From the sequence record MT446388.1: a stretch of 64,000 nt of DNA, one strand, 5' to 3'. Both the position numbers and the translations under genes were made by a program. The notes below the pieces were generated by a model. That model was not told the DNA's origin. It worked only from the letters and a program-made list of their open reading frames with translations, and did no database searches. This DNA comes from Escherichia virus TH10. Positions 18,084 to 21,660 of this stretch are shown here, piece by piece. Each line of letters begins with the position of its first letter. The first letter of the stretch is position 1.

Positions 18084-19256
18084 ATGGCAGTAGGTGAAAT
18101 TCAAATTAGTGCCTTGCCTCAAGCAGCTTTACCAATTGACCTTAGTGATATCTTCCATCTTAAGCAGGGTATTGAGGATAAGAGGTGTACTCTTGAGCAA
18201 TTACTTGCTCCACACGCAAGCCTAAGAAATAACCCTCATGGTGTTACTAAAACACAAATTGGTTTAGATAATGTTATTAATGCTCTTCAGTTAGTCGCTG
18301 CAAATAACTTATCAGATATTGTTAATGTAGCTGAGGCAAGAGCAAATCTACAGATTATGTCTTCAGAAGAGGTTAATAACCTTGTTCAGCAACATATTCA
18401 GGACAAGAGCAACCCACACAATACAACTAAGGCACAGGTAGGATTGAGTAATGTTCAGAACTGGACAACATCTAACCTTTATAATGAAGATGCAGATAAG
18501 TATGCTACAGCAAGAGCAGTAAATAACTTGTACAAGGCTGTTCAGGCTTCCTATCCAGTAGGTACTATCCATCTTTCCATGAACTCTGCAAACCCTTCTA
18601 CATACTTAATTTGCGGAGGTACTTGGGAGTTAGTCTCAAAAGGTAGGGCATTGGTTGGTTATGCCTCTGATGCAAGACCAGCAGGTTCTGTATTTGGTGC
18701 TTCAACTGTCACTTTGTCAGTTAATAATATGCCTCAACACTCCCACTCTGTATCTCTTAGTGGTGGTGGTCACACTCATAATGCAACTGTGTCAATCTCA
18801 GCTTTTGACTATGGAACTAAGACTACCAACTCTTTTGACTATGGAACAAAAGCTACTAACACAACTGGCAACCATACACATAGTGTGTCAGGTAACACGA
18901 GTACAAACGGTACTCATGACCATGACGTGTATCCTAGAGAAAATGATGGCACTGGTAATGCTGTAGCTGACTCTGATGGTGGTGGTGCAAGAAGGACATC
19001 AAGGACATCTAGTGATGGCGCACACTCACATAGTTTTAGTGTTACATCTGGTGCATCCGGTAACCACAGTCATACAGTCGGTATTGGTGCTCACAGCCAC
19101 ACAGTTGGTATTGGTTCACATACACACAGTGGTACTGTGACAGTTTCTTCTTCTGAGCATACACATAGTGGTAACACGAATAGTGTTGGTGGAGGTCAGG
19201 CTGTGAATATCGAACAGCCGTCCTTCGTGCTGTATGTATGGCAGAGAACAGCTTAA
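18084..19256 (+). CDS. tail fibre protein with C-terminal His-x-His repeat domain
   Basis: N-terminal duplicated [15 protein letters not shown] / [15 protein letters not shown] fibre repeats; C-terminal [36 protein letters not shown] metal-binding-like HxH repeats; ends with terminator. Confidence 0.65.
   Translation: [390 protein letters not shown]
18804..18863 (+). repeat. perfect-frame 30-bp tandem duplication inside tail-fibre gene ([10 protein letters not shown] / [10 protein letters not shown])
   Basis: tttgactatggaactaagactaccaactct followed by tttgactatggaacaaaagctactaacaca. Confidence 0.8.
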
Positions 19257-19265
19257 TTTCTTTAC

Positions 19266-19287
19266 AGGGGCTTTATAGCCCCTTTTA
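19266..19287 (+). terminator. terminator-like hairpin after first fibre gene
   Basis: ggggc-tttata-gcccc followed by tttt. Confidence 0.45.
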
Positions 19288-19302
19288 AGAGGAAAATTTA
19301 TA

Positions 19303-21660
19303 ATGGCAGATTACAAGTTGAGTGAATTAAACTCAATCGACACAATCCGTTCAGACGACCTTCTTCATGTCAGAGTTAAAAAGAGACCTGAAATGCTAGG
19401 TGATGAAGACCGTCGAATGACCTATCAAGACTTCTTAGCATCTTTTAAGCTTGAAAGATTTGTCCAGATTGCTGGTAGTACTATGACGGGTGACTTAGGG
19501 ATTGTTAAGTTACTCTATGGCGGTAAGGCAGTATTTGACCCAACAGATTCTTCTGAGATTAATATTGGGGATGTTTTAAAGACTTTTAAAATTAACGCAA
19601 ATGGCCTTAAACTAACTATTGCAGATGCTTCGAGGTCAGCAACTGTTTATCATACTCTGAATAAACCAAGTCCTAATGAGCTTGGGATGAGAACTAATGA
19701 AGAGAATGATGCAAGATACTCAAGATTGGCTGTAAAAAACACCTTTAGCAGTACTCAAGCTATTCTCTCTGATAATGAAGCCCTTATTATTAAGAATACC
19801 ACACAAGGTGCGCCAATCTACATTAGTTGCCAAGATGCAGATGGCACTCAAAGATGGTATCTTGGCAATGATGCTTTTAGTAGAGATAACCTTGTTATCA
19901 AAAATGTTAAATATGGTGTCTATTTAGCTCTTTTAGACGGCCTATTATCCGTGAACAAATCACTCCAGATTGTTGGTCAAGTTCGACCTTCTGATTGGGC
20001 TAACTTAGATGCTAGATACTTTACTCAGACAGTCGCTAATCAGAGATTTGCACAGCTAGCTGGTGATAACACCTTTAGGGGTATTAATAATTTTGTAGGT
20101 GAGTTCAAAATTACCAGAGATAATGCTGCGTTAGTTATTAAGAATGCCTCTAATGCAACCGGACTATACCTACTTGGGGTGAAGGCTGACGGTACAAGCA
20201 AATTCTACTTAGGGACTGATACTTCTGACTCTGTAGTTAATCTGCACAACTACAGCACAAGCACAACCATCTCTTTGTCAGATGTGATTAGTGCTACTAA
20301 GACTGTGAGAATCACTGGTCAAGTTCAACCTTCTGATTGGACTAACATTGACTCTAGATACGTTCCGGCAGGAACTTTGAGCAATCTTGCTAAACTCAGT
20401 GACATGAATACTTTTAGGTCTGCACAAATTATTACACAAAATGGTTCATTGTTGCGACTAAAAAACACTGTTCAGGATAATGAACTGTACCTTTCTGGTC
20501 ATAATGCTGATAATGCGAGAAGGTGGTACATCGGGACTGCTGATAGAGCAAACCCATCTAGATTCATTATCCACAATGATAAAACTGTGACCACTATTTT
20601 TATGGAAGATGACTTTTTGCTAAATAAAACTGTAAGGATTACTGGTCAAGTACAACCTTCTGACTTCTCTAACTTAGATGCTAGATACTATACCCAATCT
20701 GCCGCAAACGCAAGATATATGCTTGCAAGCATCACTGGCTCAGCTTCTGAAGCAGATGGCGGTGATGGTGTTGCATGGAATGCAAAAACAGGTCTCTATA
20801 AGGTTACTAACACAAGTGGCCAGTCCTCTCTTCTTGTGTATCACATGTTTTTGGGCACTAGTTCTACGCCATCTGCACAATTAAAGTTTAATTTTAAAAA
20901 TGGTGGGATGTGGTATAGAACAGCAAGAGATAGCTATGGTTTTGAGGCCAGTTGGTCTAAAGTTTACACAGATACTCAAAAACCAACCCCTTCAGAAATT
21001 GGTGCATATACTAAAGCCGAAACTGACCAGAAAATTGCAACAGCAATTAGTGACTCTACAGACCTTAATAAAATCTATCCAGTAGGTATTGTAACGTGGT
21101 TTAACAGTAATGTTGACCCTAATACAGCACTTCCTGGGTTAACTTGGACGTACCTTAACAATGGTGTTGGTAGGACTATCAGGATTGCAGCAGCAAATGG
21201 TTCAGATGTTGCTACAACTGGTGGTTCAGACTCTGTAACGTTGTCTGTTGGTAACTTACCATCACACACCCATAGTTTCTCTGCTACCACTTCATCTTTT
21301 GATTATGGTACAAAGAACACTAATAACACTGGTGCTCACACCCACTCTGTAAGTGGTACTGCTAACTCTGGTGGTGGACACGCACATAGAATCTCACAAG
21401 GTGACAACGCTAACGTACCATCTGGTCGTGTTGCTTCATCAAACTCTGCTCAAACGCACGTTGGTTGGACAGAAAGTGATGGTGTTCACACTCACTCTGT
21501 AAGTGGTTCTGCTGCATCTGCTGGGGGACATGCTCATTCTGTAGGTATTGGCGCTCACAGTCACACAGTTAGTGGTAACACTGGTGGTACAGGTTCTGGT
21601 TCAGCATTCAGTGTTACTAACCAGTTCTACAAGTTAATGGCTTGGGTAAGAACTGCTTAA
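19303..21660 (+). CDS. long tail fibre / receptor-binding protein with triplicated internal domain and C-terminal HxH domain
   Basis: Three copies of V(R/Q)[10 protein letters not shown](T/A)N(L/I)D(A/S)RY spaced ~110 aa; C-terminal [58 protein letters not shown] paralogous to C-terminus of 18084..19256. Confidence 0.7.
   Translation: [785 protein letters not shown]

Follow-up and report, generated by a model that had tools for sequence, protein, structure and literature searches.

Two adjacent tail fibre genes of a Felix O1-like phage encode proteins with T4 gp37-type tips, paired repeat units and variable head cassettes

What is the common element in the histidine-rich ends of two neighbouring phage tail fibre genes, and what might it do for the phage? 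The question is raised by a locus of Escherichia virus TH10 (sequence record MT446388.1), from which 64 kb of phage DNA was analysed (the window; about a quarter of the genome lies beyond it). Two adjacent open reading frames (ORFs) occupy the locus on the + strand, at 18084-19256 (390 amino acids, aa) and 19303-21660 (785 aa), as given in a preliminary description made from the letters alone; all features of these two genes described below are on that strand. Both proteins were said there to end in blocks rich in His-x-His (HxH) motifs with the same layout, resembling metal-coordinating motifs of T4-type fibres, and both genes to carry internal duplications. The region very probably encodes two receptor-binding fibres of a Felix O1-like myovirus, each with a tip of the kind formed by T4 gene product (gp) 37, for which an out-and-back needle, metal sites and the swapping of cassettes are proposed as the mechanism.

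The window is assigned to Felixounavirus because the region matches 232 phage records, nearly all of them Felix O1-like (Felixounavirus-like) phages of Escherichia and Salmonella, because positions 1-25000 show 96.4% DNA identity over 98% of their length to ASO1A (vB_EcoM_ASO1A) and VpaE1_ev035, and because the gene order is shared. Upstream of the fibre genes are a Baseplate_J-like gene (Pfam Baseplate_J), a 287-aa baseplate gene (wedge 1) and a 100-aa gene (LTF-platform). Downstream are two small ORFs and then, on the opposite strand, genes for thymidylate synthase and dihydrofolate reductase (thyA-frd). This order is identical in six annotated genomes (Bas63, bumzen, ASO1A, FO1a, REP10 and momo). 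The two ORFs stand at the position expected of the Felixounavirus pair of short tail fibre (STF) and long tail fibre (LTF), Bas63 gp26 and gp27, and are identified as these by sequence.

The 390-aa STF is the ortholog of Bas63 gp26, VpaE1 gp74 and Felix O1 gp76 (gp75 in the FO1a record), is syntenic with its counterparts in Bas63, bumzen, ASO1A and FO1a, and matches PHROG 2097 'tail fiber protein' with E=2.7e-137. The tail fibre of phage REP5 is 98.5% identical to it. The 785-aa LTF is the ortholog of Bas63 gp27, VpaE1 gp75 and Felix O1 gp77 (gp76 in the FO1a record) and has a full-length match to PHROG 4277 (1-785 of 780, 1276.6 bits). For comparison, the fibre loci of seven GenBank phages and 29 IMG/VR contigs were aligned.

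The resemblance of the two ends to T4-type fibres proved to be true homology. STF residues 146-362 align with the T4 gp37 tip (structure 2XGF, chain residues 18-228; E=9.2e-29 over 217 residues), and the alignment pairs all seven T4 HxH motifs, two (D/F)xxGTK units and the HxHxVGIGAHxHxVxIGSHxH run. LTF residues 646-764 match 2XGF 90-218 with E=9.5e-14. In both fibres, as in the gp37 tip, a collar lies ahead of the needle and outbound and return HxH motifs flank a variable head. The STF has nine HxH motifs (four outbound, five return) and the LTF six (three and three); the counts for the T4 gp37 tip are 3 and 4.

In the STF, the collar (18552-18737, aa 157-218, YPVG...SVNNMPQ) aligns with the collars of 2XGF and of T4 gp10. 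From the 2XGF alignment, the outbound strand of the needle was placed at 18738-18923 (aa 219-280), with HxH at aa 219, 230, 264 and 278 and two FDYGTK units. It is followed by the head cassette, the putative receptor-contacting tip (18924-19022, aa 281-313, head type A), which corresponds to T4 gp37 residues ~932-965 and is the most variable segment among STF orthologs. The return strand (19023-19166, aa 314-361) has HxH at aa 314, 328, 337, 346 and 359, and the C-terminal strand back to the collar (19167-19253) is collinear with the LTF C-terminus and conserved in all STFs compared. A second class of STF tip (Bas63 type) is found in L001, L002, L007, L028, L030, L031 and L033. It has a third FDYGTK-like unit in place of two outbound HxH motifs and so has seven HxH against nine; the predicted number of metal sites therefore differs within the genus.

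The LTF has the same layout. Its collar (21076-21264, aa 592-654) aligns with that of the STF and is conserved in nearly all LTFs. The outbound strand (21265-21387, aa 655-695) carries HxH at aa 655, 679 and 693, a single FDYGTK unit (21298-21327) and, at aa 674-687, a match to Pfam Phage_fiber (HxH repeat). The head cassette (head type C) is at 21388-21486 (aa 696-728). The return strand and C-terminal strand together occupy 21487-21657, with HxH at aa 729, 743 and 752, and the final 25 residues are identical across all seven LTFs aligned.

Some GenBank records annotate the 390-aa protein as a baseplate wedge or tail pin of the T4 gp10 type, one ortholog being labelled 'baseplate wedge subunit and tail pin'. 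Its top Pfam hit is Gp10_C, on the collar (E=5.4e-17, 63.5 bits, cut-off 27), and there are PDB matches to T4 gp10 with E~1e-4. However, the similarity is limited to the collar of ~80-110 residues, which is common to gp10 and gp37, and takes in only gp10 residues ~439-515; outside the collar, Pfam and PDB sequence searches gave no similarity to the N-terminal and middle domains of gp10. The protein resembles the gp37 tip much more closely, and electron cryomicroscopy (cryo-EM) of Bas63 has the ortholog as a 430-Å fibre attached to the wedge (PMC12609058). That the protein is a tail pin rather than a fibre is thus improbable.

Adjacent and co-oriented genes might also encode the proximal and distal halves of one jointed fibre, like T4 gp34 and gp37, since the long fibres of T4 are made of several gene products. 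Against this, each protein has its own conserved N-terminal domain and a complete collar-needle-head tip. The N-terminal part of the STF (18084-18551, aa 1-156), a baseplate-binding domain with shaft, is near-invariant among eight Felixounavirus STFs; its role in baseplate binding is taken from the Bas63 cryo-EM study (PMC12609058). The N-terminal baseplate-binding region of the LTF (19303-19707, aa 1-135) is 90-100% identical to six other LTFs over aa 1-120, identity dropping to 68-90% over aa 121-160, and at the DNA level 19300-19700 is 84-99% identical in the majority of loci and about 70-85% identical in the remotest. Moreover, reconstructions of Bas63 and Sf14 have two separate fibre trimers at each baseplate position, and in Bas63 the 630-Å LTF (gp27) is attached, like the STF, by its own N-terminal domain (PMC12609058). 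A single jointed fibre is very unlikely.

Two copies of NPHxxTKxQ(I/V)GLxNV lie 60 aa apart in the N-terminal part of the STF, at 18231-18281 (aa 50-66) and 18411-18461 (aa 110-126). STF residues 40-150, which span both copies, are matched by many unrelated phage tail proteins in a PHROG search.

The arrangement proposed for two separate fibres draws on the structures of Bas63 and T4. By homology to Bas63, each N-terminal domain would anchor its fibre to the baseplate. A shaft would come next, short in the STF and composed in the LTF of three gp37_trimer repeats and a Mu-S-like gp37_C domain. The chain would then leave the collar, run outward as one strand of the needle, form the small variable head at the distal end and return to the collar. 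As in T4 gp37, the HxH motifs of both strands would face the axis of the trimer and bind the metal ions (iron in T4) by which the needle is held together, with nine predicted sites in the STF and six in the LTF. In the T4 protein, seven iron atoms lie on the needle axis, held by HxH histidines of three chains, and the head binds lipopolysaccharide (LPS) and OmpC via residues just after H929/H931 (PMC6957217). For Bas63, low-resolution density together with AlphaFold 3 models led to the proposal of a trimeric metal-bound needle (PMC12609058).

The head is the part expected to contact the receptor. Receptors of this genus are LPS core or O-antigen structures; VpaE1, a close relative, adsorbs to truncated LPS core (PMC4690856). 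Because the STF and LTF heads of the window are unrelated (7-27% aa identity to each other), the phage probably reads two different surface structures. The FDYGTK 10-mers of the outbound strand, the HxHxVGIG 9-mers of the return strand and the ~110-aa shaft repeats are probably length modules of the fibres rather than recent accidents. Conserved blocks (collar, HxH runs, shaft-repeat junctions and C-terminus) flank the variable cassettes, and homologous recombination there, between phages and between both fibre genes, could swap cassettes and so change host range.

Several points weigh against this arrangement. The topology and metal binding of the fibres of this phage rest on homology, and since neither head resembles that of T4 in sequence, homology does not point to a receptor. 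Against Pfam Gp10_C the LTF collar reaches 26.2 bits, slightly below the gathering cut-off of 27. A codon-aligned sliding window over the two genes gave no sign of recent exchange between them, and the argument for recombination comes from relatives. In addition, T4 gp37 requires the chaperone gp38, and a tblastn search of the 64-kb window with T4 gp38 gave no homolog (best E=0.22; gp57A was not searched for, and about a quarter of the genome is outside). As no gp38 homolog is detectable in the window, folding of these fibres may differ from that in T4; a study of Sf14, a related phage, also reports no fibre chaperone homologs.

The needle segments contain short repeats. An in-frame 30-bp tandem duplication had been noted at 18804-18863 and is present exactly there (repeat family D4): two 10-aa units, identical at 24/30 nucleotides (nt) and 8/10 aa, which Tandem Repeats Finder at a score of >=30 did not report. 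That program did find a second repeat in the return strand of the STF, not singled out before, at 19065-19134 (period 27; HSHTVGIGA / HSHTVGIGS / HTH), the first two units of which are identical at 22/27 nt. The units are short, in frame and in tandem, and the copy number among relatives ranges from 1 to 4, as might be expected of recent slippage giving unstable, fast-switching length variants. However, the units are only 80% identical in DNA, and copy number is fixed for each fibre type: there is one FDYGTK-like unit per tip in LTFs, and two, three or four according to STF type, with two in all 27 STFs of the window's class that were compared. The two 10-aa units also occur in T4 gp37, which likewise has a 2 + 3 arrangement. 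Copy number on the outbound strand also changes in step with that on the return strand, which is not expected from single slippage events. Recent slippage is therefore most improbable, and a recent tandem duplication at 18804-18863 was rejected. Because T4 gp37 has the same units and DNA identity is only 80%, the FDYGTK duplication is, on the sequence record, an old structural repeat and not a recent event.

The coupled change of copy number follows a simple relation. Where the outbound strand has N FDYGTK-like 10-aa units (1-4), the return strand has N+1 HxH motifs at 9-residue spacing (2, 3, 4 or 5). The relation was true of 161/194 proteins, comprising Felixounavirus STFs and LTFs, T-even gp37s and enterobacterial prophage fibres, and recurs in several distinct fibre lineages; the set (loci L001-L037, proteins P0001-P0120) came partly from a large-database search and holds many close relatives, so the count overstates independence. 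Among the 33 exceptions, one group (3,5) has a possible degenerate fourth unit, such units being missed when counted by regular expression, and others include truncated or frameshifted entries. The pattern points to changes in needle length through duplications paired across the two strands. It is conceivable, though we hold it to be somewhat less likely than the contrary, that the needle is built from paired length modules, each extra 10-residue outbound unit being matched by an extra 9-residue HxHxVxIG return unit, and that the head is a portable cassette copied between the two fibre genes of one genome, as in the Felix O1 clade. If the modules are paired, a duplication on one strand coordinated with a duplication on the other would tune both how long the needle is and how many metal sites it has.

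The two fibres of the window differ by a matched pair of gaps. Their C-termini were described earlier as paralogous, with a common layout; all the motifs quoted for it are present, including the closing WQRTA / WVRTA. BLASTP with composition adjustment gives 38% identity over 187 aa (E=3e-28), and the alignment is collinear from the YPVG collar through the last residue. It is interrupted in the LTF by two matched gaps, of 21 residues in the outbound strand (one GGGHTH...FDYGTK unit) and 20 residues in the return strand (GIGSHTH...SSEHTH). A Smith-Waterman alignment scores 348, compared with 77 +/- 11 in 1000 composition-preserving shuffles (z=24), and the collar alone, ahead of the first HxH, gives z=10.6. 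A likeness due only to shared His/Ser/Gly/Thr-rich composition might be suspected, since H, S, G and T abound in both tails and HMMER composition bias on the 2XGF matches is high (32.7 STF, 36.0 LTF); the preliminary description had named a His/Ser/Gly effect without collinear conservation as the finding that would overturn it. A pure composition effect was rejected on the shuffle tests and has a negligible probability next to common descent.

Comparison of relatives reveals where the fibres vary. N-terminal parts, collars and C-terminal strands are near-invariant, whereas heads and the interiors of the LTF repeats are hypervariable. At least seven STF and at least eight LTF head types occur, in several combinations across genomes. 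The window and ASO1A both combine an STF of type A with an LTF of type C. STF type A also occurs with a T4-like LTF head (REP10, L010 and L014); LTF type C, present in ASO1A and several IMG/VR contigs, also occurs with STF type I (L018). These combinations support independent assortment of the head cassettes of the two fibres.

The LTF of the window is itself a patchwork, to judge from the nearest relatives of its segments. Positions 20100-20300 (repeat 2) resemble only bumzen and momo (79-88% DNA identity, others <=57%), and 20400-20700 (repeat 3) are closest to L015 (94-99%). The next segment, 20700-21000, is closest to ASO1A and L015 (82-94%), and the head region at 21300-21500 to L018 (98%); no other head exceeds 85% identity, and those of bumzen and Bas63 stand at about 50%. 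Between these segments, most genomes share conserved junctions, located at 20000-20100, 20300-20400, 21000-21300 and beyond 21600. The patchwork accounts for the low best identity of the whole LTF, which is 80% among GenBank phage proteins (bumzen) and 85.7% among IMG/VR loci (L015), so that it is <=86% identical to any LTF compared. This mosaic pattern among relatives suggests that cassettes are swapped by homologous recombination.

Exchange between the two fibre genes of one genome is seen in the Felix O1 clade, where both fibres have the same head type, GG(R/H)YGGDSIGGK.RVQ... In FO1a (L005), the STF and LTF head cassettes share 96-98% DNA identity over about 35 codons, while their flanks share 50-60%. 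In L027 (IMGVR_UViG_2706796270_000001), the two cassettes differ at 0/96 nt, yet are >=8 nt from those of every other genome, and the STF cassette of L023 is closest to the LTF cassette of L024. These cases are direct sequence evidence that heads can move between the paralogous fibre genes of this clade by gene conversion. If heads are copied in this way, a phage could carry two different heads at one time and the same head on both fibres at another.

In the window itself, the most similar stretch of the STF and LTF genes is one 11-aa block with 84% DNA identity over 15 codons. Recent gene conversion within the window was rejected, given the dissimilarity of the heads and a block too short to separate from selection on the motif. 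The earlier proposal that the shared segments are substrates for recombination and domain shuffling is thus borne out by relatives, through assortment, the LTF mosaic and the copying in FO1a and L027, with no recent case in the window.

Some Felixounavirus LTFs (L006, which is REP10, and also L010 and L014) have a head near-identical to that of T4 gp37, HYIEAWNGTG.GG.KMSSYA.SYR.GGS.TNAAGNHSHTFSF. Such heads point to transfer between phage families. The 54% identity of VpaE1 gp75 to T4 gp37 has been noted before (PMC4690856).

How do the fibres compare with known systems? The pairs Bas63 (JohannRWettstein) gp26/gp27, VpaE1 gp74/gp75 and Felix O1 gp76/gp77 have the same genome position, architecture and gp37-like tip, with near-identical STF aa 1-156 and LTF aa 1-120 and conserved collars and C-terminal strands. 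In the STF tip, the window has nine HxH motifs, two FDYGTK units and head type A, whereas Bas63 has seven, three units and another head. The LTF is 70% identical to Bas63 gp27, and its segments are closest to bumzen/momo, L015, ASO1A and L018 in turn. The T4 gp37 tip has the collar, HxH needle and head layout in common with the window fibres. They differ from it in their unrelated head sequences, in two additional HxH motifs beside the STF collar and in the absence from the LTF of two of the T4 motifs. The window fibres would also attach straight to a simple Mu/P2-like baseplate, unlike gp37, which belongs to the distal half of a jointed fibre.

Fibres of other phages share smaller parts. Mu S (8JU3) has a domain in common with LTF gp37_C; in Mu it lies near the fibre end, with a separate chaperone, whereas in the LTF a gp37-type collar and needle follow. 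Lambda Stf is 48% identical over STF residues 235-343, sharing the FDYGTK-plus-HxH needle segment, which is also matched by many enterobacterial prophage fibres with Pfam Phage_fiber (PF03335). Lambda Stf and the prophage fibres have other N-terminal shafts and C-terminal ends (...MGWYRSA, ...NYIVRLA), and their genes are usually followed by a gene for a Tfa chaperone.

Much of this architecture has been described for the genus. The Felix O1 genome paper (2010) noted that both fibre C-termini resemble T4 gp37 (PMC3185647). The VpaE1 paper (2015) gave gp37-like ranges of gp74 aa 146-362 and gp75 aa 584-780, in agreement with those found here, and described fibres with a conserved N-terminus, variable middle and variable C-terminus (PMC4690856). 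For Bas63, the cryo-EM paper (2025) reported that both fibres end in a collar-needle-head tip bearing HxH motifs, gave their number and found tips and shaft repeats highly variable (PMC12609058). For T-even phages, Tetart et al. (1996, 1998) reported, according to the account in PMC3157838, that adhesins recombine at conserved motifs and that host range is altered by duplicating a small gp37 domain. That both fibres carry gp37-like tips is therefore correct but not new. By the comparisons made, the window LTF is a new mosaic of known segments and the STF a near-copy (98.5%) of a known protein. No description of N/N+1 pairing or of head copying between paralogs was found in the searchable literature, priority being uncertain as the original T4 tip structure and the Tetart papers were outside the search; the paired-module rule and the paralog-to-paralog copying of heads are modest additions.

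Felix O1-like phages serve in diagnostics, biocontrol and therapy directed at Salmonella and E. coli, and which hosts they infect is determined by these two fibres. Engineering of the fibres would be aided by the presence of the same cassette-like gp37-type tip on both, and by the conserved junctions at which phages in nature exchange heads and shaft repeats; natural splice points are offered by the collar, the HxH runs and the shaft-repeat junctions, all of them conserved.

The shaft of the LTF accounts for the larger repeats. Three repeats of ~110 aa, as first described, are present in tandem at 19708-20688 (repeat family D2; spacing 342 and 327 nt): R1 19708-20019, R2 20008-20361 and R3 20350-20688, of 104, 118 and 113 aa. 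They are 43-47% identical to each other in aa sequence, and each terminates in (I/V)(T/V)GQV(Q/R)PSD(W/F)xN(L/I)DxRY. Pfam gp37_trimer (PF20744) matches three times (E=4.7e-52, 174.4 bits; gathering threshold 21.7). Among genomes, the interiors of the repeats are hypervariable and their junctions conserved. The gp37_C domain follows at 20761-21060 (aa 487-586; Pfam PF12604, E=4e-20, 72.2 bits; threshold 22.5), and LTF residues 481-582 match residues 330-430 of the tail fibre S structure of phage Mu (8JU3) with E=4.9e-24.

This part of the LTF differs in some relatives. In momo (L007), at aa ~470-560, the Mu S-like gp37_C domain is replaced by a longer unrelated segment (about +59 aa). Similarly long LTFs occur in L011, L021, L022, L024 and L032 (840-849 aa for the long group) and may carry the same kind of shaft module swap. 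In two IMG/VR contigs (L020 and L026), the LTF frame is split into two ORFs with the C-terminal tip intact, through either sequencing error or a genuine frameshift.

Promoter-like sites in 17700-22400 are no commoner than in shuffled sequences. The two small ORFs downstream of the LTF sit where T4 has the gp38 chaperone gene, 3' of the fibre gene. The first (21740-21937, 65 aa) matches only PHROGs of unknown function, as does the second (21934-22305, 123 aa), which has a hydrophobic N-terminus and a coiled-coil-like remainder and is annotated as 'holin' in some records. A very weak Rz-like spanin match was also found for these ORFs (E=0.009). Beyond their 3' end is the sole convincing terminator in 17700-22400, a bidirectional hairpin at 22312-22335.

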